Origin: Bacteroidales bacterium
GTDB taxonomy: Bacteria; Bacteroidota; Bacteroidia; Bacteroidales; VadinHA17
Reading direction: 5' to 3'
Assembly (NCBI GenBank): GCA_038248855.1
Contig: JBBRXA010000010.1
Location: forward strand, 1,315-65,314
Length of the DNA stretch: 64,000 nt
The notes below the pieces were generated by a model, which saw only the letters and a program-made list of their open reading frames with translations, did not search any database and was not told the DNA's origin. Shown here piece by piece: positions 10,698 through 39,413 of this stretch (its first letter is position 1; each line of letters begins with the position of its first letter). Made by a program: the position numbers and the translations under genes.

Positions 10698-10731
10698 AAA
10701 AGGCTGTCATAATCCGTTATGACGGCCTTTT
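10698..10731 (+). terminator. rho-independent terminator
   Basis: AAAAGGCTGTCATA / loop ATCCGT / TATGACGGCC hairpin followed by TTTT. Confidence 0.6.
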
Positions 10732-10736
10732 GCCTT

Positions 10737-10744
10737 TATATTTG
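10737..10744 (+). promoter_or_regulatory. -7 box (TATATTTG)
   Basis: TAnnTTTG match 19 nt upstream of ATG 10764. It supports the shorter dcp start. Confidence 0.45.
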
Positions 10745-10763
10745 TATCCAAACAGTTTCCCGG

Positions 10764-12809
10764 ATGAAAGATAAGACAAACCCGCTGTTAATTCCATGGT
10801 CGACACCTTTCGGGGTGGCGCCCTTCGGTTCAGTTAAGGCAGAACATTTCAAACCGGCAACAGAGCATGCCGTTGAAGTTGCCCTCAGAGAGATTAACGA
10901 AATAGTCTCGGGCAGTGAAGAACCTGATTTCGGGAACACAGTCGTGGCACTGGAAGATGCAGGCGAACTGCTGAACCGTATCACTCCTGTGCTCTTTAAC
11001 CTGAACAGCGCCGACACCACCCCTGAGCTCCAGGCAGCAGCACAGCAAGTCTCCCCTATCCTGACAAACTTTGCAAATGACATAACCCTTAACCCTGAAC
11101 TCTTCAGAAAAGTAAAAGCCGTTTATGATAAAAAAGAGACTCTGGGTCTGGACCCGGAACAAATGATACTTCTTGACCGTAAATACAAGGGCTTCGTCCG
11201 CGGCGGCGCCGCTCTGCCGGAAGCAGACAAGGAAGAATTTCGCACCATAACGGTGGAAATGTCAACCCTTTCACTGCAGTTTGAAGAGAATCTGCTCGCT
11301 GAAACAAACGATTTCACAATGCATCTGACAGATGCCCTGGAGCTTGCAGGACTTCCTGAGAATGTTCAGGATGCTGCCGTTATTGCCGCAAAAGAGAAAA
11401 ACCTGGAGGGGTGGCTCTTCACCCTTCACGCTCCCAGTTATATACCCTTCATGCAGTATTCTGACCGCCGTGATCTACGTGAGAAAATGTTCAGGGCATA
11501 CACAATGCGTGCCTTCCGTGGCAATGAACGTGATAACAGAAATCTCGTCTCCCGCCTGTCGGAACTGCGTCTGAGAATGGCTAAACTGCTAGGTTACCCT
11601 GACTTCGCATCTTATGCCCTCGAAGAACGGATGGCCTTCACGCCTGAGAAAGTAAAGATCTTCCTTGAAGATCTCCTGAATTCCTCCAGAGCTGCCGGAC
11701 AACGTGATGTGGCTGATATAGAATCCTTTGCACACTCCAACGGGCATCAGGGCAGGATTGAACGATGGGATTGGGCCTATTACTCCGAAAAACTGAAGAT
11801 GAAGCGGTACAGCATCGATGATGAGGCGTTGAGACCGTTCATGCCGCTTGAGAAAGTTCAGGAAGCTGTGCTTGGTCTTGCAACAAAACTGTACGGAGTA
11901 GCATTCATTGAAAATAAAGACATTCCTGTTTATCATCCTGATGTGACAGCCCATGAGGTGCATGACGGCGCCAGGGGTGTCACGGCCATCCTGATGCTCG
12001 ACTTCCATCCCCGCAAGGGCAAGGGGGGAGGCGCATGGATGACCGGCTACCGCGAACAGCGCAAAGAGGGAGGCAGGAGAATCATTCCTGTTGTTTCACT
12101 TGTAATGAACTTCACCCGTTCCACCCCTGCCAGACCGGCACTGCTTTCACACAGTGAGCTCACCACCTTCCTCCATGAATTCGGTCACGCTCTGCACGGG
12201 ATGCTTACCGACTGCACATATGAGAGCCTGTCAGGGACCAATGTGAAGCGTGACTTCGTGGAACTCCCATCGCAGATAATGGAGAACTGGGCGTGGGAAA
12301 AAGAGTGGCTTGACATGTGGGCGTCACACTATAAGACCGGGGAAAAGATCCCTGCAGACATCCTTGTAAAACTTAAGGAATCACTGACCTACAACGAGGG
12401 GTATGCAAGTATGAGACAGCTGAGTTTCGGATTTCTCGACATGGCATGGCATACATTGAAAGAGCCGTTCAGCGGTGACATTGCATCATTTGAACGTGCC
12501 GCCATGGTTGACTCCGAATTGCTTCCGCCGGTCGGGGGAGCCTGCATGAGCGTCTCCTTCGGGCATCTCTTCTCCGGAGGTTATGCAGCAGGATATTACG
12601 GTTACAAGTGGGCAGAGGTGCTTGACGCTGACGCTTTCAGCCTATTCAGGGAAAAGGGGATCTTCGACCCTGAAACCGCATCGTCATTCCGCACCCACAT
12701 ACTTGAGAAAGGCGGCAGCAGGGAACCTGATGAGCTCTTCAGGGCATTCCGTGGCAGAGAGCCGTCGATAGATGCATTGATAGAGCGGTGCGGTTTCAGC
12801 AAAGACTGA
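10764..12809 (+). CDS. dcp: M3 family peptidyl-dipeptidase
   Basis: FLHEFGHALHG zinc motif, and length and pattern typical of Dcp/oligopeptidase A. The track start at 10719 would lie inside the terminator hairpin. Confidence 0.9.
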   Translation: MKDKTNPLLIPWSTPFGVAPFGSVKAEHFKPATEHAVEVALREINEIVSGSEEPDFGNTVVALEDAGELLNRITPVLFNLNSADTTPELQAAAQQVSPILTNFANDITLNPELFRKVKAVYDKKETLGLDPEQMILLDRKYKGFVRGGAALPEADKEEFRTITVEMSTLSLQFEENLLAETNDFTMHLTDALELAGLPENVQDAAVIAAKEKNLEGWLFTLHAPSYIPFMQYSDRRDLREKMFRAYTMRAFRGNERDNRNLVSRLSELRLRMAKLLGYPDFASYALEERMAFTPEKVKIFLEDLLNSSRAAGQRDVADIESFAHSNGHQGRIERWDWAYYSEKLKMKRYSIDDEALRPFMPLEKVQEAVLGLATKLYGVAFIENKDIPVYHPDVTAHEVHDGARGVTAILMLDFHPRKGKGGGAWMTGYREQRKEGGRRIIPVVSLVMNFTRSTPARPALLSHSELTTFLHEFGHALHGMLTDCTYESLSGTNVKRDFVELPSQIMENWAWEKEWLDMWASHYKTGEKIPADILVKLKESLTYNEGYASMRQLSFGFLDMAWHTLKEPFSGDIASFERAAMVDSELLPPVGGACMSVSFGHLFSGGYAAGYYGYKWAEVLDADAFSLFREKGIFDPETASSFRTHILEKGGSREPDELFRAFRGREPSIDALIERCGFSKD

Positions 12810-12833
12810 AACAGAATAATCACGCATTAAAAA

Positions 12834-12860
12834 AGAGAGTATCCTCACCGGATACTCTCT
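12834..12860. terminator. bidirectional hairpin between convergent genes
   Basis: AGAGAGTATCC / loop TCACC / GGATACTCTCT, a perfect 11-bp stem flanked by an A-run and TT. Confidence 0.5.
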
Positions 12861-12901
12861 TAAACCAACCTAAATTCCACCCCGAAGGGCAAATAATATT
12901 A

Positions 12902-13741
12902 TCAGAGTGCCGTGAATACTCTCACCGATGAATTTGGTGAGGCTACAGCCCTGAATCCCGCCATTGTATGATGATACCTGCGGCCGATAAAAAGTGTTGA
13001 AGTAGCTGTATACGCTGCAAAGGCTCCGCCGGCACCCATAACCTGAAGGTCCCCGATGACTGTTCCGCCGTCGTCCACTTCCTTGATCTTAAAAGTGATA
13101 AGCCGCGAGCCTGATGAAATCAGGTCAGTTTTCACAACTGTGATCTTCTCCCATCCTGTGGATTCACCGAAACCAACCGGGGTACCGATGTTAACAAGTG
13201 CGCTGGTGCGCGTATTAACATACTGGTACTGCAGTTTCTTTGTAGTTGGAACACCTGCAGATTCATACAGGAAATTGTAGAATTTGACCCAGGCTGTTGA
13301 ATCGGTAACATCAGTCAAATTGGCTACATAGGGATAACCGTTGTCAAACACTTTTGGTACCTGTGCAAAGTCATGTACAAACAAATTCTGTTTGCCTGCT
13401 GTAAGCGTTACGCTCTGGTCATAGACAAGCACATCCATATCTGTCCCCTGGTACATCTTAATATTGACGGTACCCGGATTCACTGTATAGAATCTGCCTA
13501 CCCCACCGCTGGGAATGGCATTGTAGGTATTCAGAGGGGCCTTGTTGTTGGAATATAACTGATTGTTTATCTCAACCTTGGTTATATTATTGGCAGCGAC
13601 GGCAGTAACCGGCACAATGTAATGCAGCTGGAACTCAGCCACTTCCCCGATGGTTGTGGCGTCGTATGTAATCTCGTGCTTTTCGCAAGAAACCATCAGG
13701 ATCACTGCCAGAATCAGACTTAAGTATTTTATGATTTTCAT
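12902..13741 (-). CDS. PUL-associated surface lipoprotein, unknown function
   Basis: Lipobox LMVSC. It lies directly downstream of SusD, the position typical of SGBP-like accessory binding proteins. Confidence 0.55.
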   Translation of the reverse strand: MKIIKYLSLILAVILMVSCEKHEITYDATTIGEVAEFQLHYIVPVTAVAANNITKVEINNQLYSNNKAPLNTYNAIPSGGVGRFYTVNPGTVNIKMYQGTDMDVLVYDQSVTLTAGKQNLFVHDFAQVPKVFDNGYPYVANLTDVTDSTAWVKFYNFLYESAGVPTTKKLQYQYVNTRTSALVNIGTPVGFGESTGWEKITVVKTDLISSGSRLITFKIKEVDDGGTVIGDLQVMGAGGAFAAYTATSTLFIGRRYHHTMAGFRAVASPNSSVRVFTAL

Positions 13742-13764
13742 AATTGTTGATTTTTAATTTGCAA

Positions 13765-15684
13765 TTACTTGGTTGGCATATCACCCGGATAGGCAAACCA
13801 GGGTATTGAGGTCTGGTAGTTGGGGGCCATTCCGGAAATCGGCTTCAAAGCTTCAAGAGATGGTTTGTTCCACATGTACTCCGAGTTGTAGCGCGGGCGT
13901 ATCCTGTAGGAGGGTGAACCCTCGTTGAAAGTGTTGTAGGCTGATTTACGGCCCTGTACCTGTGCAGGCGCCAGGTAAAGGCCTTTGTAAACCTTGTCCG
14001 GATCTGTATCCCATTTCATGGTTACCGTGGAGAGATCCCAGCCATTACCGCTTGAAGGATAGTCACCGGTATATTCGATGTCATAGTGGTATTTCCTCAT
14101 ATCAACCCATGCTTCAGTTGCTCCCCACGGATAGAGTGCAACCCATTTCTGCATCATGATGTGTGACAGGGTGAAATCAGCTTCTGTAAGAAGGTCAACA
14201 TATGGCCCGGCTGCATATTCAGCAGCCATCGTCGTAAAGACTGCCTTCGTGAGTTTGTCGCCACCGGAAACTCCAAGGGTAGTCTGGACACCGTCAACAA
14301 TCTTACCCTGTTTCCCGGTTAATATATAGTTGCCTGTAAAATCCAGGTCCGCCTTGACTCCGTCTCTGAGGGCCTGAAGTGATTCGGTCTTACGGTCAAG
14401 CTTCCAGAGTGCTTCCGACAGGCAGAACTTGAGTTCGGCATATGTCATCAGGATATATGGAGCGTCATCACGGTAGATCCAGCGGCCTATTCCGTCATGG
14501 GCTGCATCGTTGGTGCTGGTGGCAGCCGAGATCGAGTTGCGTCCGTAGAATGATGGTGTGGTACCGATGGGGCCCGTCAGGCCTGTAAAGGAACCTCCGT
14601 AATACTTGCGTTTCTTGATTGCATAGGCATTATCAAGATTTGTATAGGCCGGATCATCAACGGTGGCAAGCTTCACAGCAACACGCGGGTCATAGTGACC
14701 AGGTACTGTTATGATTGTGTCGGTCACAATCTGCTTTGCAGCCAGCTGATACGGGTAATATGTGTTCCCTGTAACAGGGGTCTTGTTTCCTGTTGCCTGA
14801 TCATACTCCGGCACGGTGCCCGTGAATACCTGAACAGCATACTCGTGCTGCCAGTAGGAGCGCGAAAGGTTAACCCGGCTGGTGCCCCAGAAGTTGTTGT
14901 ATCCGCTCTGGGCTGCGGCCGCACTACCTCCGGCAACCCTTACAGTTGCATTGTCAGCATTCGAAGCAAACGACTTGGAAGCTGCGTCAAGGAGCTCGGT
15001 TGCATAAGCCGTGCTGAAATCACTCTTGTTCGTGAGAGAGGTCAGGTTGCGTACAATAACTCCGTAGGCAAATTTCTTCCACCTCTCAGGATCACCTCCG
15101 TAGATGAAGTCGTTGGCGCTGATTTTGGTACCGTAGTTGGTGGCATCAGTCATTGAAAGATATTCAATAGCCTTGTTTGCCCAGCCGCGAACCGCAGAAT
15201 AGATCGTGTCCTGGTAGTCATAATCGTGTGCAAGCAGTCCCGGCACAAATGCATCCTTGAGGATGAGTTCGCCGTGCAGCTTGGTAATCTGGTCCCAGGA
15301 ATAGGCCTTGATAGCATAACCTATTCCGGCAAGCGTCCAGTTTTCTGCCGCAACTGACTGGTTTATCATGTTCTCGAGGTTCATTCCGTGGAGCCAGTAG
15401 ACAACACGCCATATCTCACCGCCGGCATCACTTCCGGAATAGTAATAGTGACTTGCAAAGTTTGCATAGCCAGAGGTACCCATCATCTGGGTGAGCGGAC
15501 CGGTGGCACGGATGTCCCAGTACATGCCCTGATATTGCTGGATGATCCCTGCAAGGTACAGATAACCTTCCACCTGGTCCGGAGCATCCACGTTTTTGTT
15601 GACATCTAGATACTCTTCACAACTTGTCGTCATGAACATGAACGATGCCAGCAAAAGAACGGAAATTGATATCTTTTTTATCAT
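13765..15684 (-). CDS. SusD/RagB family nutrient-binding outer-membrane lipoprotein
   Basis: N-terminus with lipobox then ..TTSCEEYLDVNKNVDAPD, characteristic of SusD-like proteins. Sits immediately downstream of SusC. Confidence 0.9.
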   Translation of the reverse strand: MIKKISISVLLLASFMFMTTSCEEYLDVNKNVDAPDQVEGYLYLAGIIQQYQGMYWDIRATGPLTQMMGTSGYANFASHYYYSGSDAGGEIWRVVYWLHGMNLENMINQSVAAENWTLAGIGYAIKAYSWDQITKLHGELILKDAFVPGLLAHDYDYQDTIYSAVRGWANKAIEYLSMTDATNYGTKISANDFIYGGDPERWKKFAYGVIVRNLTSLTNKSDFSTAYATELLDAASKSFASNADNATVRVAGGSAAAAQSGYNNFWGTSRVNLSRSYWQHEYAVQVFTGTVPEYDQATGNKTPVTGNTYYPYQLAAKQIVTDTIITVPGHYDPRVAVKLATVDDPAYTNLDNAYAIKKRKYYGGSFTGLTGPIGTTPSFYGRNSISAATSTNDAAHDGIGRWIYRDDAPYILMTYAELKFCLSEALWKLDRKTESLQALRDGVKADLDFTGNYILTGKQGKIVDGVQTTLGVSGGDKLTKAVFTTMAAEYAAGPYVDLLTEADFTLSHIMMQKWVALYPWGATEAWVDMRKYHYDIEYTGDYPSSGNGWDLSTVTMKWDTDPDKVYKGLYLAPAQVQGRKSAYNTFNEGSPSYRIRPRYNSEYMWNKPSLEALKPISGMAPNYQTSIPWFAYPGDMPTK

Positions 15685-15709
15685 TGTTTCAGTTTTTTTG
15701 TATTATCAA

Positions 15710-18700
15710 TTATTTGAAAGTCACACTTAGACCGATCGAGTAACCTCGCGGGTTGGGCAGTGCCCAGACATCGATACCTTCACCGCCGGTACCGCCTGCA
15801 GCTGCAGACGTTGTATTTCCAACGGCATCAATGCCTGAATAGTTAGTCCAGACAGCAAGGTCATTACCTGTTACGAACAGGCTGGCCTGGGACAGGATTG
15901 CTGTCTTTGCGAGCCATTTCGAAGGCAGGTTGTATGAGAGGCGCAGCTCCTGCAGACGCAGGTAGTTAACATCCTTTTCAATCCAGTCCTCATCATTCCC
16001 TGTATATATTGAAGGGAAGAGGTTATAATCAACTGCTATATTATTTTTGGTGGGATTGGCTGTGTTTTCATTGCCATCCTGCAGTACGCCGTCAAACACC
16101 TGAGGCTGGCTTTCACGCAGATTCACCGACTCCCAACTGAGGCCCTCCTGCATCATATAACGCTTGGTACCATTTACAACTGTTGCCTTGTACCGTCCGG
16201 AAAACATTGCTGAAAGACGCAGTCCCTTGTAGCTCATTGAAGAGGTTACCCCGTAGCGGAGTTTTGGTTCACGGTCGCCCAGAACGCTCCACACACCACT
16301 GACAACCGGCAGACCCGATGTTGGACTGATGAGCACATCACCCGCCTCATTGCGAAGGAATGCGCGACCCGTAATTGTCGTTACCGGATAGCCGAGCATG
16401 ATACCGTTGCGGATGTTCCCTGAGTTCCAGGTGTAAGGGTTGTAATATTCAGTAACGTTAGTAGGAAGGTAGGTCACTTCAGACTCTGTATGTGAAGCAT
16501 TGAACCCGATGTTCCAACGCAGGCCGTTACCCATGCGAAGGACATCACCGTCAACGTGCAGTTCCCATCCCTCTGTCTTGAATGTACCTACGTTCATGTT
16601 GTTCAGAACGAACCCGGTTCCGTAGCTGAGACGGAAACCCTTCACGATCTGGTCATCACAGTGTGTCCAGAAGTAGGTGAAGTCGGCATTTAACCTGTCA
16701 TCAAGAAAACGACCTTCAAAGCCTACCTCTTTTGAGGTGGTGATCTCAGGCCTCAGGTTCCTGTTCGGACCTGTGAAACCATACTTGTAACCTCCGCCGG
16801 TAAGGTAAGTGGGCTCCAGCTGCGGGTCTATCTCTAGCGGACCGGCATCCTTACCTACCTGTGCTATCGACCCGCGAAGCTTCAGGTAGTTTACAAATTT
16901 GTTATCCTGAATGAAAGGCAGTTCGGTAACAATGAATGATCCCTCAATTGCCGGGTAGAAGTAACGATTGTTTGCAACAGGAAGCGTTGATGACCAGTCG
17001 TTCCTTGCACGCAATGTTATATATGCCATCTGGTTATACCCCAGTTCAAGCTGGCCGGACAGAGCCTGAATCCTTCTCTTGGTGTGACGCTGTGATGAGC
17101 TGATTGACAGCGGATCGCAGTTGTTAATCGACTGAAAGTCCACCACTGCAAACTTTGTACCGTATGTACTCAGGCGGGTGACACCGTTCTCAAGCTGGTG
17201 GTATCCGAACTGTGCTGATACTGACAGTTTATCATCCAGGAACTCATTGGTATATCCTGCAAGTACGTTCAGGGTCGGATCCGAGAAGTTTGACTTTGAA
17301 ATGTTGTATATCCCGGTTCCATCCTGGTAAGTGTCATAATATGGGTGCCTGGTGGCAATATATGTCTGCATACCTACGTCCCAGCCAACCTGCGCACGGA
17401 CGAACGTATGCTCAACCGGTACCAGTGTTGCTGACACGTTGGAGATGAGACGGTCAGAGTCATCAAACAGTTTGTTCTTGTAAAGACCGAAAAGAGGGTT
17501 GATCAGGTCACCGTCAAGATAGTAGTTCGGTGTGCTCATATGTGATCCGTCAGGAGCGAGCCAAACCGACATGTCGTCAACCATCGGCCAGCGCATTGCC
17601 CTGTAAAGAGGCCCGTCTGTTCCGAGGGGAACCTTGTTGTTTTCGGTGGCTACATATTGCATTGAAGATTCCACGGTAAGCCATTTCGTTACCTCAGCTT
17701 TTCCGGAGAGGGAAAGGTTAAACCTGTTATAGTCAGAAGTTTTTATTACACCCTGCTGATCCAGCGTGGATGCTGAGGCGCGGAGTGTAACCTTGTCTGA
17801 TCCGCCTTCAACCGAGATGTTGTGCCTCATGGTGATGCCGGTCTGCAGCACCGCGTCAATATTGTCGTAAAGGGTCATACCCTCTATATACTCACCGCCG
17901 AAACGTGTTAGATAATAGTAGTTTGTTGTTCCATAGTAACCGCTGGTGTATTTGTCCTGCAATTCGGGAATGCCATATGCATCATCCCACCTGAACGAAT
18001 TGCTGTAGGAGACTTTGCCTCTGCCTGGCTGGCCCTTCTTGGTAGTAATGATAATCGCTCCGTTTGAGGCATCGGAACCGTAGAGAGCTGCAGCAGCAGC
18101 GCCCTTGAGAACGGTCATTGATTCAATGTCATCCGGGTTGAAGTCGTTTCCGCGCGATGCGAAGTCGAGGTTACGTACCGAGAAGTTGACTCCGGCATCT
18201 GCCATCGACAGCGGGTCAAACGTCGAGTTGTTCATCGGAATACCGTCGACAACATAGAGCGGCTGGTTGTTGCCTGATATTGAGGTGATACTCCTCAAAA
18301 CCACGGAGGTTGAAGAACCGGGGGCACCGCTGGTGCTTCCGACGTTCATACCTGCAACGCGCCCCTGAAGGGCCGTTATGAAGTTGTCACGCCCTGACTC
18401 GATAATGTCAGTGGCCTTTATGTTCTGAACCGATGAACCGACAGCCCTTGAAACACGTTTCATTCCGAATTCTGCGGTTACAACTACATCTTCGACATTG
18501 ATGACATCCGGATTCATCCGGGCATCATAGCGGTTGGAAGTTCCAACCGTAATTTCAAGGTCGGAGTAACCGAGATAGGTAAACACCAGAACCTGACCTG
18601 CCGGAACACTGATCGAATAAAATCCGCTTCCGTCTGTGCTTGTACCGGTTGTGGTGTTCTTGATGATCACATTGACCCCCGGCAACGTTTCATTGGTGCC

Positions 18701-18802
18701 CGCGTCAGTGACGTACCCTGTTACGGTCTTGGGTTGAGCATAAGTGCTTTGGGAAAGCATCAGGCCCAAGACCGCAAACAATGTTAATAGAATTGTTCTC
18801 AT
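15710..18802 (-). CDS. SusC/RagA family TonB-dependent outer-membrane transporter
   Basis: 1030 aa. N-terminal CarboxypepD_reg-like domain (VTGYVTDAGTNETLPGVNVIIKNTTTGTSTDGSGFYSI), plug domain, C-terminal ...SIGLSVTFK barrel end. No STN domain. Confidence 0.95.
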   Translation of the reverse strand: MRTILLTLFAVLGLMLSQSTYAQPKTVTGYVTDAGTNETLPGVNVIIKNTTTGTSTDGSGFYSISVPAGQVLVFTYLGYSDLEITVGTSNRYDARMNPDVINVEDVVVTAEFGMKRVSRAVGSSVQNIKATDIIESGRDNFITALQGRVAGMNVGSTSGAPGSSTSVVLRSITSISGNNQPLYVVDGIPMNNSTFDPLSMADAGVNFSVRNLDFASRGNDFNPDDIESMTVLKGAAAAALYGSDASNGAIIITTKKGQPGRGKVSYSNSFRWDDAYGIPELQDKYTSGYYGTTNYYYLTRFGGEYIEGMTLYDNIDAVLQTGITMRHNISVEGGSDKVTLRASASTLDQQGVIKTSDYNRFNLSLSGKAEVTKWLTVESSMQYVATENNKVPLGTDGPLYRAMRWPMVDDMSVWLAPDGSHMSTPNYYLDGDLINPLFGLYKNKLFDDSDRLISNVSATLVPVEHTFVRAQVGWDVGMQTYIATRHPYYDTYQDGTGIYNISKSNFSDPTLNVLAGYTNEFLDDKLSVSAQFGYHQLENGVTRLSTYGTKFAVVDFQSINNCDPLSISSSQRHTKRRIQALSGQLELGYNQMAYITLRARNDWSSTLPVANNRYFYPAIEGSFIVTELPFIQDNKFVNYLKLRGSIAQVGKDAGPLEIDPQLEPTYLTGGGYKYGFTGPNRNLRPEITTSKEVGFEGRFLDDRLNADFTYFWTHCDDQIVKGFRLSYGTGFVLNNMNVGTFKTEGWELHVDGDVLRMGNGLRWNIGFNASHTESEVTYLPTNVTEYYNPYTWNSGNIRNGIMLGYPVTTITGRAFLRNEAGDVLISPTSGLPVVSGVWSVLGDREPKLRYGVTSSMSYKGLRLSAMFSGRYKATVVNGTKRYMMQEGLSWESVNLRESQPQVFDGVLQDGNENTANPTKNNIAVDYNLFPSIYTGNDEDWIEKDVNYLRLQELRLSYNLPSKWLAKTAILSQASLFVTGNDLAVWTNYSGIDAVGNTTSAAAGGTGGEGIDVWALPNPRGYSIGLSVTFK

Positions 18803-18914
18803 TTGATTGGTTTTAGGGTTAAATGATAGTTAGGTTATATTATTGTGGTTTTAGAAACTCGGACTTTCTTTAAGAGCAAGATAAAGACTTTTTCTGTATG
18901 ATGTATTACAACTA

Positions 18915-20060
18915 TTATATTTTTCTCTGAATAATTCCCAGTCCCGGACCGGAAGGAAGAGTCACCTTGCCGTCAATGACTGTCAATCCATCATAAAGGT
19001 CATTGCTGATCAGAAGGTTTCCGTCAAGGTCAGCCCAGTCAACGAGTGGTGAGAGCTGCGCTGCAGCTGACACTGCACAGGATGTCTCTGTCATACATCC
19101 TATCAAAATCTTCATCCCCATAGCCCTGGCAAGAGTTATCATCCTGTATGCGGCATTCATTCCCCCGCATTTCATCAGCTTGACATTTATGCCCGAGTAA
19201 ATACCCTTCATCGGGAGCAGGTCTGCTACGGTCTGAAGGGCTTCGTCAGCCAGAATCGGCAGCGGGCTTCTCTCTGTCAGCCAGGCAATATCGTCAACCC
19301 GTTCCTTGGCCATCGGCTGCTCGATAAAGACAACATTCTTCTCTTTCAGCCAGAATGCCATTTCAAGCGCCTGATCCCTGTCCTTCCACCCCTGGTTAAC
19401 GTCTACATATAAGGGTTTGTCCGTAACTGACCTGACACTCTCGATCATCTCCCTGTCATTGTCCCTTCCGAGTTTTACCTTCAGTATTTTGAACACGTCA
19501 GCCTCTCTGGTCTTCTCCTTCACAACATCAGGAGTGTCAATTCCAATTGTAAAACTCGTGTCCGGGGTCTTTGCAGGATCAAGTCCCCAGATCCTGTACC
19601 ACGGCTCACCGATGAGCTTGCCGATAAGGTCATGCAGGGCGATGTCCACCGAAGCTTTTGCGGCATAATTACCGGGCATGATGCCGTCAACATACGCAAG
19701 GATGTCTTCCTTAAGGAAAGGATCACTGAATTGCTCAAGTTTTACCTTTGAGAGAAACGCGGTCACAGAAGCCTGGCTTTCACCAAGATACGGCGGCATG
19801 GAGGCTTCTCCGAAGCCTGTAACTCCGTCATATTCAATTTCTGTGAGCACCACCGGAGTTGTTGTTCTCGAATTGGAGGCGACCGTAAAAACATGCTTCA
19901 GCTGCAGTTCATAAGGTCTGAAACTGAGCCTGAGCGTTGAAGACCCTCCTGTTTTTCCTGATCGCTTTCCCATTGATTCTTTTGCAGACGGGGTTGAACA
20001 GCCAGTGATTATGGCCCCTGCAGCCAGTCCCCCGTATTTGATGAAATCTCTTTTCTTCAT
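18915..20060 (-). CDS. dipeptide epimerase (enolase superfamily, L-Ala-D/L-Glu epimerase-like) with Tat-like lipoprotein signal
   Basis: Core pattern of mandelate racemase/muconate-lactonising family dipeptide epimerases (LKVKLG, FIEQP, DE..Q, KL.K.GG). N-terminus is MKKRDFIKYGGLAAGAIITGCS. Confidence 0.8.
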   Translation of the reverse strand: MKKRDFIKYGGLAAGAIITGCSTPSAKESMGKRSGKTGGSSTLRLSFRPYELQLKHVFTVASNSRTTTPVVLTEIEYDGVTGFGEASMPPYLGESQASVTAFLSKVKLEQFSDPFLKEDILAYVDGIMPGNYAAKASVDIALHDLIGKLIGEPWYRIWGLDPAKTPDTSFTIGIDTPDVVKEKTREADVFKILKVKLGRDNDREMIESVRSVTDKPLYVDVNQGWKDRDQALEMAFWLKEKNVVFIEQPMAKERVDDIAWLTERSPLPILADEALQTVADLLPMKGIYSGINVKLMKCGGMNAAYRMITLARAMGMKILIGCMTETSCAVSAAAQLSPLVDWADLDGNLLISNDLYDGLTVIDGKVTLPSGPGLGIIQRKI

Positions 20061-20063
20061 TTT

Positions 20064-21236
20064 TCAAAAATACCAGTTGTGCTCTGAAATGCGTTCAATG
20101 CCTTTGGAGGAAGGCTCCCCGATTATTCTCCTTGCACCCTGAAGGGTGCTCTTCAGATAATCACTGTAGTTCGCACGTGTGGAGTCCAGGCTGTTGACCC
20201 TGATTATTCCCGGCGAATGAATGACCTCGGTATCACCTATATACATACCCACATGGCCTATCATCTTCTTTCCGTTCCGTACCCTTCCGAAGAATAGCAG
20301 GTCTCCTGGTTCAAGGGCGTCTGTATTGTCAACCGGCACTTCCTTTCCGTACCTGTGCTGTGACGATGCGTCGCGTGCCAGTATGACCCCGTATGAAAAA
20401 TAAACTGTCTTTACATACCCGCTGCAGTCTATCCCCTTGGATGATGTACCTCCCCACAGATAAGGGGAACCCAGTAAAGTAAAAGCTGATTTTACAAGCT
20501 CTGCGGCAACGGGCTGCGTATTTACTGCCCACGACCTGAATTCCGTTGCGTCGGATTTGCTTATAAGACCGCTTCTTCCGTCAGGCAACATTACCCGGTA
20601 CGATCCGCCCTGCTCCCCGGTCTTTACAGCTACCGCACCGGAAACGAGATCAGAGACAACCTGACCCCCATCAGTGACCATGTCTCCGTAATTCTTCTGA
20701 AAAATAACCCTGTCTGAACTTCGCCACCCGGCCATCTCCTTTTCGTCCATCTCATACACGGCATCATCATTGGTCCACCCAAGGTATGAGTCAGGAGTCT
20801 GGATAAAGAACCAGCCGCCCCTCTTTTTCAGGATCTTCACCGGAGTGCCCATGATTGCCTGCGTTATCATCTCAGCACCGTGAGAAGGTTTGCTCCTCAT
20901 GTTGCAAACGCTGAGCGTAATTACACCCCACGACTTTTTAATGATTGCAGTGTCAGGGAGCACTGTGATACTGTCCCTGAATGCCTCTCCTGAATTCTCC
21001 ATGTAACCGATGAGCTCTTCTTTCGCCCCGGGGATGTTCGTCTCACCCTTAACGGTAATCTTCCCGTCATCTGACATTAAAAGCTCAATATCGCAAAGGG
21101 TCTCCGAGGACTGAGGCACCCATCCTGCCGCAATGGAATCAATGTCAGCAGCAATGTTGCCGGGGACCTCTGCATCCCTGCAACCTGTAAGCTGAAACAT
21201 ACTTAATAAAATAAGGAAATATCCGGTTACTTTCAT
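20064..21236 (-). CDS. NlpC/P60 family gamma-D-glutamyl-diamino-acid endopeptidase-like lipoprotein with SH3b domains (YkfC-like)
   Basis: Lipobox QLTGC. C-terminal NlpC/P60 catalytic core: GIDCSGYVKTVY (Cys), GHVGMYIG (His) and VIHSPG. Confidence 0.85.
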   Translation of the reverse strand: MKVTGYFLILLSMFQLTGCRDAEVPGNIAADIDSIAAGWVPQSSETLCDIELLMSDDGKITVKGETNIPGAKEELIGYMENSGEAFRDSITVLPDTAIIKKSWGVITLSVCNMRSKPSHGAEMITQAIMGTPVKILKKRGGWFFIQTPDSYLGWTNDDAVYEMDEKEMAGWRSSDRVIFQKNYGDMVTDGGQVVSDLVSGAVAVKTGEQGGSYRVMLPDGRSGLISKSDATEFRSWAVNTQPVAAELVKSAFTLLGSPYLWGGTSSKGIDCSGYVKTVYFSYGVILARDASSQHRYGKEVPVDNTDALEPGDLLFFGRVRNGKKMIGHVGMYIGDTEVIHSPGIIRVNSLDSTRANYSDYLKSTLQGARRIIGEPSSKGIERISEHNWYF

Positions 21237-21263: not shown

Positions 21264-21271
21264 CAAATTTA
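21264..21271 (-). promoter_or_regulatory. -7 box (TAAATTTG on minus strand)
   Basis: TAnnTTTG match 27 nt upstream of the NlpC/P60 start. Candidate promoter of the SusCD operon. Confidence 0.4.
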
Positions 21272-21525
21272 AAAAAATTTATTTTACTGCGGCAATAGAA
21301 TTACGCTTTTAATTAAACTTTTAATAGATGGCTGATTAATTGAAGCATAGACCCTCTGAATTTGTAAATGCCGCCTTCCGGAGAGCCTGTGACTTTTCCG
21401 GTCATCAAATAATTCATATATTAGTTGCTCTTTTGCAGATTCAGATAATACAAAAACATAAGTGCCCGCGGCGGAACCCGCAGGAGAGGCGAACCGAAGG
21501 CAGGCACAACAAAGGATTAAAATAT

Positions 21526-22782
21526 ATGAAAACGACTTTCAGACTTTCAGTCAGGTCCTTGCTGGTGCTCTGCATTGCAATGACATCAGCCTGCGCCATG
21601 AAGGGGCAGACAGTTTCAACGGGTGTTGAACAGCTTGAAGAGATTGATTTTGCTCCGCTCAACGGAAAAAGGGTCGGACTTGTAACGAACCCCACGGGTG
21701 TAGACCGCAACCTGAGGTCGACAGTCGATATTCTGTTCAATGCCCCCGGTGTGAAGCTCGTTTCTCTTTTCGGGCCGGAGCACGGTGTCAGGGGTGATTT
21801 TACCGCCGGTGAATATGTAATGACTGAAACTGATCCTGTCACCAAACTGCCGGTTTACAGCCTGTACGGGAAGACCCGCAAACCGGCAAAAGAGATGTTG
21901 CAGGGAATTGATGTCATGGTATACGACATCCAGGATATCGGATCGAGATCCTATACGTTCATCAGCACCCTGGGCCTTGTGATGGAGGCTGCTGCAGAGA
22001 ACGGTATAAAGGTTATCGTGCTTGACAGGCCGAATCCCCTGGGTGGTGTACGCATGGAGGGAGCCATTACCAAACCCGGATTCATATCTTTTGTCAGCCA
22101 GTTCGAGATACCATACCTGCACGGGCTTACGGTCGGAGAACTCGCCCTGTTCCTGAACGGTGAACGGCTCCTTGCCAATGGCGTACAGTGCGATCTCGAA
22201 GTGATTGCAATGAAAGGATGGCACAGGAATATGTATTTTGAAAATACCGGTCTCCAGTGGGTCCCCTCGTCACCGCACGTACCCCATGCAGATTCTCCCC
22301 TGTTTTATCCTGCAACAGGGATCGTGGGTGAACTCTATTCAGCAACCATAGGTGTGGGCTATACCCTCCCGTTCCAGCTTTTTGCAGCCGAATGGATTGA
22401 TGCCGGCGCCCTGGCCGGAAGCCTGAACGGACTGCATCTACCCGGGGTTATCTTCAGACCCGTGCATTTTAAACCGTATTACAGCACCTCGGTGGGAAAA
22501 ATGGTTCACGGAGTCCAGATCCACTTCACGGATGTCGAAAAGGCACCGCTGTCAATCTTACAGTTTTATATTTTGCAGGAAGCCCATAAACTGTGGCCTG
22601 ACAAAAATCTGTTTGAAATGTGCGAGCCGTCAAGGCTTTCCATGTTCGATAAAGTCTGCGGAACAGACCAGATCAGGAAAGAATTCACAAAAGAATTCAA
22701 GGTCAGCGCCATAGAGGGAATGTGGACAAGGGAAATCCCGGCTTTCAGGAAGAAAGCTGAAAAGTATTTCCTGTATAATTAA
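21526..22782 (+). CDS. DUF1343 / NamZ-like exo-beta-N-acetylmuramidase (GH171), secreted
   Basis: GKRVGLVTNPTGVD...LFGPEHG is the typical DUF1343 (YbbC/NamZ) N-terminus. ATG 21526 gives a signal peptide (MKTTFRLSVRSLLVLCIAMTSACA). The 62-codon upstream extension in the track looks non-coding. Confidence 0.8.
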   Translation: MKTTFRLSVRSLLVLCIAMTSACAMKGQTVSTGVEQLEEIDFAPLNGKRVGLVTNPTGVDRNLRSTVDILFNAPGVKLVSLFGPEHGVRGDFTAGEYVMTETDPVTKLPVYSLYGKTRKPAKEMLQGIDVMVYDIQDIGSRSYTFISTLGLVMEAAAENGIKVIVLDRPNPLGGVRMEGAITKPGFISFVSQFEIPYLHGLTVGELALFLNGERLLANGVQCDLEVIAMKGWHRNMYFENTGLQWVPSSPHVPHADSPLFYPATGIVGELYSATIGVGYTLPFQLFAAEWIDAGALAGSLNGLHLPGVIFRPVHFKPYYSTSVGKMVHGVQIHFTDVEKAPLSILQFYILQEAHKLWPDKNLFEMCEPSRLSMFDKVCGTDQIRKEFTKEFKVSAIEGMWTREIPAFRKKAEKYFLYN

Positions 22783-25106
22783 ATGGCTTCCCCTTCTACG
22801 CTCTTTTCAAGTTCCCGTGCATGTTCAAGGAACTCGTTTATCTTCATTTCCCTGTGATAAACCATCCCGTGAGTACCTCTGATTTTGGGGCTCTCGTTTT
22901 CATAGAAGAAATCCTTGCCGAGGATCAGCTGTACCTGTTTGAACTGTTCCACCCAGACCTGCTGCGAGAGGTCGCTGAAGGGACCGTCATAGGCGGGACT
23001 GGGGAATGAGGCGTTTACCTGACTGACATAACAGTCTTTGAAAGACTGGTTCAGTACTGCCATAGAGTTGAGGGAAACAGGGGTAAAGACATTTGCTTCC
23101 GAGGGCATGAATCTGTACCAGACATTGCGGTAACCGATTATCCTCAGGTCTGACAGATCCTGTTCCATACTCCACTGGCGGAGGGCTTCGGCAATGGCCT
23201 GCAGTACCTTGTAATGAGTATCAGGACCGGATCCTTCAGGATCGAAAGCAAGGCTGATGACGGTTGGCTTAATTCGTCTCAGCGTCTGAAGCACAGGTTC
23301 GACGTCCCTGTTCCGGTCCGGCTGCTGGGTAAAGATGTCACCGGTATAGAATCCCAGCCTGAGATGTTCTATATTCTGAACCTTGACACCGTAATGAGCC
23401 CATACCAGTTCTTCTTCATACTCCCGCAGCATTCCTTTCAGCTGCTGTATGTCAGGCGGGTTTTTCTCGCCGCTGTAACTGCCGGTGATCAGGTCAATGT
23501 TCTGCTTCAGCCGGGTTACAAGCTCTTCATTGGATTTCAGCCTGTAAATATCAACCATGGCTCTTACAATCCTGTGACATATGCCTCTCAATTTGCCGGC
23601 CTCATCCTTGTCGGCGGTCTTGTCGAGATAATGACTTACGTCTTTGTCCCACTTGAATTTGTACCCGCTTTCATAGAAGTCAGGATAACTGAGCATCTGT
23701 ATCTTGTCGGAAGATATGAGAGACAGTGTCTCCCTCAGCAGTTTCAGGAGCATATCGTTTGTCACAGCCGTAAATCCGGATGTAAGCACCGCAAAGTGAA
23801 ACCGGTTGGTTATTTCCCTCAGCTGGGGAATAATTGCCGGAAAGATCCCGAGCATGATATCGTCGTGATGCGGCCCTGTATGGAAAAAGACCTGATTTCT
23901 GTCTCTTGTAAGTCCTGCCTCAATCTTGTCCTTTGTCGATTCTATTACCTGCTGTACGCTCTCCATGCTCAGGCCGGGTATCATCTGGCAGTACTCATCG
24001 TTCTTAAGATCCTCAATGACAAGCTTGTGCGCATACTTGTCAATCTTCTGGCAGAGATCGAAGACAGCTCTTTCAGTCTTTTCAAAAGTCCATTCTCCCT
24101 CCCTGTAATAACGCTCGATGCTGTCATGCAGCTGAACCGAAGCTCCTTCAGTGATGTAGAACCGTGCGTTTTTCTGGTTCTGAAGTACGGTAGCAGGATA
24201 AAGATTATCAGGTCCCATTTCGATGGCGTTCTTCACCACCTGAGCTTTGGCCTCACCGGCGGCAAAAATTATTGATACACCTTGCGGGTTGTAAACAATG
24301 GTGCCCAGGCCGATTGTTATTACCAGGCGTTTCCTGGAGACCTCTATTCCGCCGAGATCGCCTGCCGAAGCTGCCTGTGTCTCAAAGTTCGTGGCTGTCA
24401 GCCTCGTGGTCGAGTTATGGTCACTGCCCCGGGTATTAAATGCTATATGGCCGTCAGGACCTATTCCGCCCAGGAAGAATCCAATCCCGCCCAGCTCGCG
24501 GATCCTTTTTTCATACCCGGTACACCAGTTATCAATCCTGAAAAGCGATGCCTGCTGAAGCTTTTCTGTCGGTGTCAGCGCCTCTCTGTTCCGCAGTGTC
24601 AGATCGATGACGTTATCCGGAAACACTTCGGTAAAATGCTTTCCTTCAGCAAGTTCTATTTCATCAGAATTGATCAGAAGGGCCTTTGCAGGGTCAAGTC
24701 CGAATCCTTTGATATAATAATTTGTAACATAGTCAAAGAAGCTGTTATGCTGTTTAGGGCTAATGGGATAGAACTCGTCTATCTGCACAAAATGAAGCCC
24801 TTTCAGAGACGGTTTTTCTTTCAGGAAGAGCCCGTTATCTTCCCTGATACTCTTTGCCTGGGGCTTTTCCCAGTTGTTGAGAAGATACTGTGTCCATTTG
24901 ATAAAATACTCCGGAGTCTTGCCTGTAGGCAGGCTGATTACTCCTTCAGGATTCTCCGCAACCCATTCGAGAAACCTGAGTGATGTAAGCAGTCCGAGGT
25001 TGGGAAAATTCTTCACAACTATGTACGGCATGGCGGAGGTGACACTTTTCCTTCCGGAGCGCCCGAAGAAAGCCTGCTCAACCCTTGTAAAAACTGCAGT
25101 ATTCAT
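22779..25106 (-). CDS. nagB: long-form glucosamine-6-phosphate deaminase: NagB domain fused to an LmbE/PIG-L-like deacetylase domain
   Basis: N-terminal SLPTGKTPE...GIGPDGHIAFN (NagB/6-PGL fold). The middle has FFHTGPHHDDIMLG (cf. the PH.DD metal motif of LmbE/PIG-L). Confidence 0.75.
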   Translation of the reverse strand: MNTAVFTRVEQAFFGRSGRKSVTSAMPYIVVKNFPNLGLLTSLRFLEWVAENPEGVISLPTGKTPEYFIKWTQYLLNNWEKPQAKSIREDNGLFLKEKPSLKGLHFVQIDEFYPISPKQHNSFFDYVTNYYIKGFGLDPAKALLINSDEIELAEGKHFTEVFPDNVIDLTLRNREALTPTEKLQQASLFRIDNWCTGYEKRIRELGGIGFFLGGIGPDGHIAFNTRGSDHNSTTRLTATNFETQAASAGDLGGIEVSRKRLVITIGLGTIVYNPQGVSIIFAAGEAKAQVVKNAIEMGPDNLYPATVLQNQKNARFYITEGASVQLHDSIERYYREGEWTFEKTERAVFDLCQKIDKYAHKLVIEDLKNDEYCQMIPGLSMESVQQVIESTKDKIEAGLTRDRNQVFFHTGPHHDDIMLGIFPAIIPQLREITNRFHFAVLTSGFTAVTNDMLLKLLRETLSLISSDKIQMLSYPDFYESGYKFKWDKDVSHYLDKTADKDEAGKLRGICHRIVRAMVDIYRLKSNEELVTRLKQNIDLITGSYSGEKNPPDIQQLKGMLREYEEELVWAHYGVKVQNIEHLRLGFYTGDIFTQQPDRNRDVEPVLQTLRRIKPTVISLAFDPEGSGPDTHYKVLQAIAEALRQWSMEQDLSDLRIIGYRNVWYRFMPSEANVFTPVSLNSMAVLNQSFKDCYVSQVNASFPSPAYDGPFSDLSQQVWVEQFKQVQLILGKDFFYENESPKIRGTHGMVYHREMKINEFLEHARELEKSVEGEAI

Positions 25107-28080: not shown

Positions 28081-29925
28081 CTATTTGGTGCTCTTTTTTC
28101 CGAATTCAGGGTTTATTCTGAGCAGTGACACCGCAATAAGCGGTACTATGCTGCAAATCATCACCCACAGGAAGAAGTGGTTATAACCGAGCTGCTCCTG
28201 CAGCCAGCCCGCAAATAATCCCGGCAGCATCATTCCAAGTGCCATAAAGCCGGTGCAGATGGCATAATGCGCTGTTTTGTATTTCCCATCAGAGAAATAT
28301 ATCAGGTAGAGCATATATGCGGTAAAACCGAAACCGTAGCCAAACTGTTCAACAAAAACACAGATGTTGATTATAAGCAGGTTATCTGTCTGGGTAAAAC
28401 TCAGGTACAGAAACGTTGCTGCGGTCAGCAGCATGCTCAGGGTCATAGGCCACAACCATTTCCTCAGGCCGCCGGAGGCTGCCACTACACCTCCGATAAT
28501 ACCTCCCAGCGTAAGACCGGTTATACCAATTGTTCCATAAACCAAACCGACCTCGCCGGTGGTCAGTCCCAGACCGCCTTTGTCGATGGGGTCGAGCAGG
28601 AATGGATTTATCAGTTTCAGCAACTGCGCTTCCGCAAAACGGTAGGTCAGCATGAAGAAGAGGGCTACCCCGACCTGCGGTTTCCTGAAGAAAGTCGCGA
28701 ATGTCTTCCCGAACTCCCGCAGAACATCGGAGGGTTTAAGATCTTCACGGGGTGCGTCGGAATCCGGTCTTGGCAGGATAAACCTGTGCCAGAAACTAAA
28801 AACGAAGAACAATCCGGCAAGAACAAAGAAAGTTACCGCCCACGACATCGGGATGTTCCCCGACAGCCCCTCATAATTGACTGACGTATTATTTGTAAGC
28901 TTGGAGTCTGCCTGGAATACCATGTAAGCCGGTTTATCCCAGTTCGATTCGTTGAAGACAAGATGATCTCCCTGAATGAGGGCAATGCTCTTGTCGCCCT
29001 TTTTCAGGACAGTATTCAGCACAATCCTTTTCCCGGATTCAGGCGAGCCGGACAGCCTGACAGGGACAACCGCCACGCTTCCGGTCACTGCAGCGACACT
29101 GCCTCGCTCCTCGCCGAAGTTATCCCTGATCCAGGCTCCCAGTGGTTCAGAAACCTTTGTGGCCCACCACCCCTTGCTCTTTACTTTTTTTCCCTCCGGC
29201 TGCACAAAACCGTAACCCAGGTTGGAGGCCCTGATCGAATCCAGGAGTATACTCAGGCTATCCCTGTCAACGGTTTGCGTGCTTATCTTCAGAGAATCGT
29301 GTTCAAGAAAAAAGTACGTCTCACCCCTGCTCCCGGGTGCTGCCGCAACATATGGCACCTCGAGTACTGTTTTGGAGTAACCGGGTGATGCCTCGATGAA
29401 GACCGAAACGGGCTCCCTGCCTGAAGAGCTTTCAAGAAATCCTGCAAGAATTACAAGAAGTCCCTGCCCGGTGATTGTGGCAACCCGGTAAAAGGTGCTG
29501 CGGATGCCCACATACCTGGCCTGCTGGTTGGTATTCAGCCCGAGCATGTAAAAACCGTCTGCCGCTATATCATGGGTGGCTGAGCCGAATGCCAGAAGCC
29601 AGAAGAAAGCCAGGGTGATCTTGAAAAAGAGTGACGCCGGAATGGTAAGGGCGATGCTCGCGAAACCTAATGCCAGGACAAGCTGCGTAATAACAATCCA
29701 CCATCTTTTGGTTTTGAGCATATCAACCAGCGGGCTCCATATCGGTTTAATGACCCAGGGCAGATAGAGTAAACTCGTGTACAGGGCTATGTCGGCATTG
29801 GAGATGCCCATTCGCTTGTACATGATCACAGATACTATATTAACCGCTACATAGGGTAACCCTTCAGCCAGATAGAGTGAGGGTATCCATGCCCAGGGTG
29901 AACGGGTTTTGTTTTGTGCTGTCAT
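28081..29925 (-). CDS. ampG: AmpG-family MFS muropeptide permease with a 190-aa inserted domain
   Basis: N-terminus is ..PSLYLAEGLPYVAVN..., with LYLPWVIKPIWSPLVD plus a KTKRWW motif-A-like loop. I hand-count 12 hydrophobic segments. A non-hydrophobic block spans residues ~166-358. Confidence 0.75.
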   Translation of the reverse strand: MTAQNKTRSPWAWIPSLYLAEGLPYVAVNIVSVIMYKRMGISNADIALYTSLLYLPWVIKPIWSPLVDMLKTKRWWIVITQLVLALGFASIALTIPASLFFKITLAFFWLLAFGSATHDIAADGFYMLGLNTNQQARYVGIRSTFYRVATITGQGLLVILAGFLESSSGREPVSVFIEASPGYSKTVLEVPYVAAAPGSRGETYFFLEHDSLKISTQTVDRDSLSILLDSIRASNLGYGFVQPEGKKVKSKGWWATKVSEPLGAWIRDNFGEERGSVAAVTGSVAVVPVRLSGSPESGKRIVLNTVLKKGDKSIALIQGDHLVFNESNWDKPAYMVFQADSKLTNNTSVNYEGLSGNIPMSWAVTFFVLAGLFFVFSFWHRFILPRPDSDAPREDLKPSDVLREFGKTFATFFRKPQVGVALFFMLTYRFAEAQLLKLINPFLLDPIDKGGLGLTTGEVGLVYGTIGITGLTLGGIIGGVVAASGGLRKWLWPMTLSMLLTAATFLYLSFTQTDNLLIINICVFVEQFGYGFGFTAYMLYLIYFSDGKYKTAHYAICTGFMALGMMLPGLFAGWLQEQLGYNHFFLWVMICSIVPLIAVSLLRINPEFGKKSTK

Positions 29926-34676: not shown

Positions 34677-34690
34677 TTTCCGGTCCTGGT

Positions 34691-39253: not shown

Positions 39254-39413
39254 GAAAGTTTTTTAAAATATGTCATACATCTGACAAAAACTGGTTTTGT
39301 ACAGAATAATTATTTATTTTTGTTATTGGTAAAGATTTCCAAATTGGTTCCTTTTTAATATAACAGCTGTTATAATACTAATATCTAACATAGTGCAAGT
39401 TTTATAAACGCTT

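Follow-up and report, generated by a model that had tools for sequence, protein, structure and literature searches.

A stretch of 64,000 nucleotides (nt) of contig JBBRXA010000010.1 (assembly GCA_038248855.1), here called the window, contains a five-gene operon in which two enzymes acting on peptidoglycan stem peptides are followed by a SusC/SusD transporter pair and a 279-aa lipoprotein. Genomic context and comparative genomics strongly support that this SusCD pair serves peptidoglycan-derived material, and on genomic grounds alone it is also rather likely that the module of SusC, SusD and lipoprotein (12902-18802) imports muropeptides or peptidoglycan oligomers and not only free peptides. 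A first-pass annotation of this DNA had proposed stem peptides or muropeptides as the cargo, a substrate class unusual for SusCD. The class is indeed unusual, as the searchable literature assigns no SusCD system to peptidoglycan-derived material, and a substrate of this origin is supported here; of the two proposed options, RagAB-like uptake of free stem peptides turned out to be the less likely half. We would give about an even chance to a wider claim, according to which the module (Tanf_08335-08325 in Tannerella forsythia) supplies the gate that has been missing for the passage of peptidoglycan fragments through the outer membrane of Bacteroidota and is the first SusCD system dedicated to the bacterial cell wall. 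In the lineage of the window it would be hard-wired to a fully periplasmic route, with an epimerase exported by twin-arginine translocation (Tat), that also lets the cell feed on the D-amino-acid stem peptide.

The five co-directional open reading frames (ORFs) lie on the minus strand and their coordinates bear out the order and spacing described earlier: an NlpC/P60 and SH3b lipoprotein, which is a YkfC-type endopeptidase (20064-21236), an L-Ala-D/L-Glu dipeptide epimerase (18915-20060), a SusC/RagA-family TonB-dependent transporter (15710-18802), a SusD-like lipoprotein (13765-15684) and the 279-aa lipoprotein (12902-13741), the third gene of the module. The gaps between them are, from 5' to 3', 3, 112, 25 and 23 nt. 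A terminator-like hairpin with a 12-bp stem and a following T run was found after the last gene (12833-12861, minus strand). A Bacteroidetes-type -7 box (TAAATTTG, 21264-21271, minus strand) precedes the first gene by 28 nt, the window-wide count of this motif not being above chance. The 112-nt gap between the epimerase and SusC genes has neither a terminator-like hairpin nor a Bacteroidetes -7 box, and a scan for sigma-70 promoters gave 11 sites against 11.5 expected, this model being uninformative for Bacteroidetes. The five genes are likely a single transcription unit. As had been claimed, the NlpC/P60 protein, SusD and the 279-aa protein each carry a lipobox, and SusC lacks an STN domain (no PF07660 match), its N-terminus being a CarboxypepD_reg extension. 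Neither a hybrid two-component system (HTCS) regulator nor a pair of extracytoplasmic function (ECF) sigma and anti-sigma factors was found among the scanned window ORFs of at least 150 aa (nearly all such ORFs), also as claimed. The statement that the locus has no glycoside hydrolase (GH), the two peptide enzymes being its only ones, holds inside the five genes but fails next door, where the divergent neighbour is a NamZ exo-beta-N-acetylmuramidase of family GH171.

The endopeptidase consists of two SH3b domains followed by NlpC/P60 (Pfam NLPC_P60, 2e-23, and SH3_16), its lipobox is LTGC, and its matches in the Protein Data Bank (PDB) are BtYkfC (3PVQ/4R0K, 5.7e-60), BoYkfC (3NPF, 2.5e-58) and BcYkfC (3H41, 7.5e-32). 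The catalytic Cys271 and the oxyanion Tyr259 align with Cys203 and Tyr191 of BoYkfC, while Tyr151 (PDSYLGW) and Asp289 (ARDAS), with positions counted through the alignment, correspond to its Tyr80 and Asp221. It is this pair, a Tyr in the first SH3b domain and an Asp in NlpC/P60, that restricts YkfC enzymes to a free N-terminal L-Ala, i.e. to free stem peptides; in BoYkfC the restriction is enforced by Tyr80 and Asp221, and lysins carry Ala and Asn instead (PMC4600125). Because the window enzyme keeps the pair, it should cut free stem peptides rather than muropeptides, which agrees with its earlier assignment as YkfC-type. Residues 20-100 (window 20937-21179) are an N-terminal extra of about 80 aa with no Pfam match; it is missing from the crystallised Bacteroides YkfC enzymes, and its length is conserved in the orthologues adjoining the module (median 390 aa).

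The second enzyme matches the B. thetaiotaomicron epimerase (3IJI/3IJL/3IJQ) with an E-value of 5e-156 across residues 44-377. By this match the enzyme is closely orthologous to BT1313, which is cited in PMC4600125 as the characterised YkfB-like epimerase of L-Ala-D/L-Glu, and the YkfB-type assignment given before is thus retained. Its motifs KVKLG, DVNQGW, IEQP, ADE, KLMK and DLDG are identical or conservative in relation to 3IJI, with KVKLG, IEQP, ADE and DLDG unchanged, and the features of the MLE subgroup are all found: the N and C domains of the MR_MLE family in Pfam, KxK, the Asp/Glu/Asp metal ligands, the second Lys and the DxD for the dipeptide amine. Its scores are below the cut-offs of the curated equivalog models, which were built on proteobacterial enzymes (PRK15129, 155.7 against 343 bits; DgcA, 211 against 400).

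The N-terminus of the epimerase (MKKRDFIKYGGLAAGAIITGC, window 19932-20060) places the reaction. A Tat-like lipoprotein signal, KRDFIK...ITGC, takes up the first 43 residues. This KR variant with a lipobox is typical of the window's clade, while other lineages have the canonical RRxFLK; twin arginines occur as NRRNFLR, SRRTFIH, DRREFIK, NRRQFLE and NRRDFLK in orthologues at L057:15921-17066, L059:8684-9820, L060:16594-17727 (minus strand), L063:5710-6843 and L070:5656-6789 (L-numbers are loci of relatives; C-numbers, used below, are contigs of the window's own genome, G000). Characterised bacterial homologues, YcjG and YkfB, are regarded as cytoplasmic. The Tat and lipobox signal of the epimerase, taken together with signal peptidase I (SPI) signals ending in Q on three neighbouring products, namely an amidase-like protein, NamZ and a fusion of GH9 with carbohydrate esterase family 4 (GH9-CE4), points to chemistry in the periplasm: the epimerase is predicted to be Tat-exported, and stem peptides would be processed on that side of the inner membrane.

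Conservation of the module was examined on a wider scale. The window SusD has more than 1000 database relatives, with no less than 67% identity for each of the best 120, and 390 stretches of species-representative genomes encode a relative. Neighbourhoods were counted in the 80 loci most similar to the window SusD, which were joined by single linkage at 80% SusD identity into 38 lineage groups; relatives among them are not independent. The 80 loci span four orders, Bacteroidales, Sphingobacteriales, Chitinophagales and Cytophagales, the Bacteroidales carriers being the window's own clade of Rikenellaceae-labelled metagenome-assembled genomes, Tannerella, Proteiniphilum, Prolixibacteraceae, Draconibacterium, Maribellus and B. 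heparinolyticus. The module is at the same time sparse (found at 1e-120 in only 2 of 301 genomes drawn evenly from the phylum). Across the 80 loci identity is 64-90% for SusD, 62-92% for SusC and 40-76% for the 279-aa lipoprotein, whose gene follows SusD in 77 of the 80 loci and 37 of the 38 groups; the three genes are a fixed module. Such conservation of a SusD across orders is unusual and is consistent with a substrate that does not vary chemically.

All ORFs of the 80 loci were then clustered independently of the window, and neighbours were counted within 10 kb. After the three core genes the commonest is NamZ (20 of 38 groups), followed by the epimerase (15 groups counted, about 14 with true orthologues, one being a 29%-identical non-orthologue), NlpC/P60 and a protein with Metallophos and beta-propeller domains (12 each), a second SusD-like_2 (9), a DeoR regulator (7), a MurT-like sodium:solute symporter and NagB-LmbE (6 each), GH9-CE4 (5), a long MurQ-like protein and a GH3-beta-lactamase fusion (4 each), and the amidase-like protein, the glycosyltransferase GT2 and MurQ (3 each). 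At least one peptidoglycan-specific gene lies within 10 kb of the module in 23-24 of the 38 groups, and gene order varies: the order NlpC-epimerase-SusC-SusD-lipoprotein is found in the window, L063 and L070, Draconibacterium has module-NamZ-...-NlpC-epimerase, and in L060 the enzyme pair is inverted. With one epimerase and at most three NamZ genes in a 3-Mb genome, chance adjacency is expected at about 1-2% per locus (about 2% for NamZ), against 12-20 of 38 groups observed. Recurrence of the module beside peptidoglycan genes is beyond chance.

A close parallel is found in T. forsythia, an oral pathogen that cannot make N-acetylmuramic acid (MurNAc) and lives on the cell walls of its neighbours. 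Its region Tanf_08345-08385, a characterised GppX-regulated unit including ampG, namZ1 and murTKQ, comprises an amidase-like 'xanthan lyase', two gtf genes, lytB, ampG, namZ1, murT, murK and murQ, and nearly all of these genes, taken with the kinase K1058, have counterparts in the window (42-59% identity, tblastn to L068, the locus of strain ATCC 43037); ampG, namZ, murK, murQ, lytB/SpoIID, both gtf genes and the Tanf_08345-like gene are clustered in the window too, at 21.3-41.1 kb. Directly beside this salvage operon T. forsythia carries the SusC-SusD-lipoprotein module (66-68% and 50% identical), namely Tanf_08335-08325, between K1058 and the ampG-namZ1-murTKQ operon. The order in L068 is K1058-type kinase, SusC, SusD, lipoprotein, SusC2, SusD2 (Tanf_08320 and Tanf_08315) and GH9-CE4, an array divergent from the Tanf_08345 counterpart, and the ORF sizes fit the listed masses (Tanf_08335, 113.7 kDa; 08330, 71.2; 08325, 32.6; 08320, 117.4; 08315, 67.5). 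All five of these proteins are abundant in outer-membrane vesicles, Tanf_08335 being second among the TonB-associated proteins, and K1058 binds MurNAc tightly with slow turnover. In the current T. forsythia model peptidoglycan is taken up into the periplasm, peptides are removed by an unidentified amidase and NamZ1 trims in the periplasm, but the searchable literature on this salvage names no outer-membrane transporter and nowhere assigns the SusCD genes to the pathway. Likewise, no SusCD or TonB-dependent peptidoglycan importer is described in the searchable literature, though a mention outside it cannot be excluded. The two systems also differ. In T. forsythia no YkfC or epimerase gene is found within 10 kb of the module, whereas in the window the module shares one operon with both, and the window genome has murA and murB. 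MurNAc auxotrophy of the source organism is therefore rejected, and the system here would serve nutrition or recycling and not the rescue of an auxotroph.

From 12.9 to 44.6 kb (about 32 kb) the window is one peptidoglycan-salvage island, of which the five-gene operon is one arm. NamZ (21526-22782, plus strand; Pfam NamZ_N 1.2e-83, NamZ_C 7e-38) is divergent to it. The listed NamZ ORF (21340-22782) starts at TTG 21340, but a start at ATG 21526 is more probable, since the protein then has a signal peptide and the 417 aa usual among its relatives; the divergent promoter region would then be 289 nt and not 103 nt. There follow on the minus strand, assigned mostly by profile matches, a NagB-like deaminase fused to an LmbE/PIG-L-like domain (22779-25106), a YdiJ-like FAD/Fe-S 2-hydroxyacid dehydrogenase (25130-28072), which may oxidise the D-lactate freed by MurQ, an AmpG-family muropeptide permease of the major facilitator superfamily (28081-29925; TIGR00901, 2.5e-45), the GH9-CE4 fusion (29928-32399), a SpoIID/LytB-like protein (32401-33789) and a DUF4922 protein with a GT2 glycosyltransferase (33741-36169), counterparts by tblastn of Tanf_08355 and Tanf_08350. 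A further gene on this strand encodes a secreted 1009-aa protein (36179-39208) with Golvesin_C and FN3 domains, a weak Amidase_3 match and an SPI signal ending SGQ, 44% identical to its T. forsythia counterpart, Tanf_08345. On the plus strand are a MurK-family MurNAc kinase (39414-40268; PDB 8OQW/8OQK, 4e-68), the MurQ etherase (40265-41104; TIGR00274, 308.8 bits, above cut-off) and a GntR/NanR-family regulator (41101-41829), the only regulator found in the island and about 20 kb from the operon. The island also holds a GH18 protein tagged for the type IX secretion system and a beta-lactamase-fold protein. A symporter like MurT was not found in the window, but related genomes have a symporter next to the module, and a homologue of it with 75% identity is encoded on contig C6.

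Put together, the operon may well be a unit that takes up and processes peptidoglycan fragments released by other bacteria or from the wall of the cell itself. SusC, with SusD as its lid and the 279-aa lipoprotein, would form a TonB-dependent outer-membrane importer through which soluble muropeptides or short oligomers of peptidoglycan, with sugar and peptide still joined, reach the periplasm. There the soluble amidase-like protein of the neighbouring operon would release the stem peptides, and YkfC and the epimerase would turn the D-Glu-containing peptide into an ordinary dipeptide, the exported epimerase converting L-Ala-D-Glu to L-Ala-L-Glu, which ordinary peptidases can digest. The glycan would be trimmed in the periplasm by NamZ and GH9-CE4, cross the inner membrane through AmpG and be passed to MurK, MurQ, NagB and the D-lactate-type dehydrogenase. 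That the amidase-like protein appears soluble and periplasmic implies that peptides enter still attached to sugar, and the most economical reading of the operon is an importer of soluble fragments with both sugar and peptide, which a periplasmic amidase splits.

SusC scores 623 bits against TIGR04056 (cut-off 368) and 57.4 bits against the TIGR04057 signature (cut-off 46.2), with Plug and barrel domains in Pfam and an ordinary signal peptide. Its best solved relative is BT2264 (5FQ6_B), matched over the full length at 2.2e-90, glycan SusCs matching less well; BT2264 was crystallised with an oligopeptide ligand, which we count in favour of peptidoglycan fragments as substrate, and the substrate of its locus, PUL27, is still undefined. 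SusD matches PF12771 (86 bits) and PF12741 (57 bits) and its signal ends TTSC. The SusD model (predicted local distance difference test, pLDDT, 69) has the generic SusD fold, with a Foldseek probability of 1.0 to many SusD structures; the closest is 3FDH, the uncharacterised BT_2033, and BT2263 ranks 33rd. BT2263 was not detected when the PDB was searched with the SusD sequence. The 279-aa lipoprotein has no Pfam family and no PDB match by single sequence or profile, and its model (pLDDT 82.6) consists of two beta-sandwich domains. The best fold match is the extracellular two-domain region of PepT1/PepT2 (Z 12.7, root-mean-square deviation 3.0 A, 174 residues aligned), which we rejected as a sign of peptide binding, since it is probably just the common tandem beta-sandwich; other matches are generic Ig-like folds, carbohydrate-binding modules and Bacteroides 'adhesin' folds, and the language-model neighbours are lipoproteins of the DUF1735 and DUF4397 types from polysaccharide utilization loci (PULs). 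In our reading it is an accessory protein of the cell surface that occupies the place of SusE/F. A predicted complex of SusD (23-639) with this lipoprotein scored 0.04, which speaks neither for nor against binding.

Two other substrates have to be weighed. The module could import another amino-sugar glycan, such as chito-oligosaccharides or another polymer rich in N-acetylglucosamine, and lie near peptidoglycan genes because the catabolic end-steps are shared. GH18, GH9-CE4 and NagB are indeed present in the island, SusD weakly matches the chitin-binding AqSusD (8e-06) and has chitin-binding SusDs among its structural matches, and many modules of Chitinophagales and Sphingobacteriales have DeoR alone or no linked enzyme. 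Against this, the top recurrent neighbours are peptidoglycan-specific, NamZ and MurQ acting on MurNAc and YkfC and the epimerase on D-Glu peptides, while the unbiased clustering of the 80 loci showed no recurrence of the chitinolytic families GH18 and GH20 next to the module, and we consider a non-peptidoglycan glycan improbable. Similarly doubtful is a RagAB-like importer of peptides only, in which free stem tri- and tetrapeptides released outside the cell would be digested by YkfC and the epimerase and the sugar genes would be served otherwise. It would account for the fact that the sole enzymes of the operon in this lineage act on peptides, for the need of YkfC-type enzymes for a free N-terminal L-Ala and for the oligopeptide bound by BT2264. 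It is less likely because elsewhere the module accompanies mainly MurNAc-specific genes: its commonest partner is NamZ, and MurQ, GH9-CE4 and the MurNAc-binding kinase also occur, often without peptide enzymes, T. forsythia being one case. Moreover, the regulators upstream in 7 groups are of the DeoR type, which usually senses sugar phosphates, the amidase-like protein is periplasmic by its signal and not surface-exposed, the match of SusC to RagA is just 3e-41 and mainly in the plug region (residues 24-272), and RagB is missing from the 50 structures that the SusD model matches best. Very unlikely, finally, is the absence of any functional link, with YkfC and the epimerase serving to recycle the wall of the cell itself and the SusCD module simply lying downstream. 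In its favour, the periplasmic self-recycling that Xu et al. 2015 proposed for BT1314 and BT1313 involves no SusCD (PMC4600125), and a promoter might lie inside the 112-nt gap. Against it, the linkage recurs in several gene orders and distant lineages far above the chance rate and the gap has no terminator-like hairpin.

Several observations nevertheless weigh against import of muropeptides or peptidoglycan oligomers. The SusD model is about equally like glycan-binding SusDs and BT2263 and does not discriminate between substrates, and the Amidase_3 match of the 1009-aa protein (26.8 bits) is just under the Pfam cut-off of 27. YkfC and the epimerase could serve the turnover of the own wall alone. 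The 80 loci were those most similar to the window SusD and so lean to its relatives. About 14 of the 38 groups, for example Chryseosolibacter and the B. heparinolyticus group, are without a peptidoglycan gene within 10 kb, and six groups have only a DeoR regulator beside the module. No operator common to the operon and the murK-murQ promoter was found, the divergent regions NlpC/NamZ and amidase/murK sharing just AT-rich 8-9-mers.

Comparison with described systems shows where the window stands. In B. thetaiotaomicron the amidase BT1087 (AmiA), BT1314 (YkfC) and the BT1313 epimerase were proposed by Xu et al. to recycle stem peptides of the own wall in the periplasm; the two enzymes, their specificity residues and their implied location are the same in the window. 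That pathway handles own wall turnover and has no outer-membrane importer, whereas here the pair is co-operonic with SusCD, and the window YkfC differs from its counterpart in being a lipoprotein with the additional N-terminal residues mentioned above. BT2261-2264 (PUL27) resembles the window in its extra lipoproteins, the lack of carbohydrate-active enzymes (CAZymes) in the operon and the involvement of a peptide ligand, but BT2264 and the window SusC are paralogous, with roughly 30% identity. RagAB of Porphyromonas gingivalis is likewise a SusCD-type system for a non-glycan substrate with no CAZyme in its operon; it is without linked peptidoglycan enzymes, and RagA is more distant from the window SusC than BT2264 is. 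Classical PULs likewise have a SusC/SusD pair with an accessory lipoprotein where SusE/F would be, and periplasmic exo-glycosidases are linked to it. They differ from the window, where no HTCS or ECF/anti-sigma genes were found among the scanned ORFs, there is no obvious surface endo-enzyme, the operon contains peptide-degrading enzymes and the proposed substrate is a glycopeptide. By the measure of a glycan PUL, no CAZyme lies inside the operon, with GH171 NamZ divergent to it and GH9-CE4 and GH18 elsewhere in the island.

The route of peptidoglycan fragments across the Bacteroidota outer membrane is an open step of the T. forsythia salvage model, and the module is the best candidate for it; as a three-gene candidate that is abundant in vesicles of T. 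forsythia it makes this step testable. If the proposal is true, SusCD transporters extend from glycans and oligopeptides to glycopeptides. The matter is also relevant to how bacterial necromass is turned over in sediments and guts, and to the question of which muropeptides (NOD1/NOD2 ligands) are cleared by Bacteroidota from their environment.

Some further features were observed around the operon and in related loci. A perfect 16-bp palindrome (TATAACAGCTGTTATA, 39359-39374) precedes murK by 40 nt and may be an operator of the GntR regulator (41101-41829); no convincing second copy was found in the window. The M3 (Dcp/oligopeptidase A-like) peptidase at 10719-12809, convergent with the operon and probably starting at an internal Met (MKDKTNPLL...), was rejected as part of the system, its synteny being limited to the window's own relatives and a signal peptide being absent. 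The 3-Mb genome has about six SusC genes in all. A second cluster in it (L102, G000 contig C3:47000-65000) contains three tandem SusCD pairs, one with a SusD-like_2 lid and a DUF1735-like lipoprotein, and its end adjoins another SH3b-NlpC/P60 gene, then lolA and ftsK. In close relatives (L020:4975-6747, L033:3795-5261) an extra gene lies between the epimerase and SusC, encoding a 590-aa MurQ-like SIS protein or a MurT-like sodium:solute symporter, both of which the window lacks. In 12 lineage groups (L032:3929-5800 and relatives) a 623-aa lipoprotein with a calcineurin-like phosphoesterase and a PQQ-like beta-propeller is encoded between the module and NamZ, and it is speculative to suppose that it strips phosphodiester-linked wall polymers off MurNAc; it is not in the window, and a 33%-identical homologue is found at G000 contig C33:8954-10747, near another SusC. 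A paralogous SusC (about 30% identical) with a SusD-like_2 often directly follows the module (L068:12836-17863, L019, L028, L030, L036, L050, L074, L075 and L013; none in the window), which suggests two importers for different classes of fragments.

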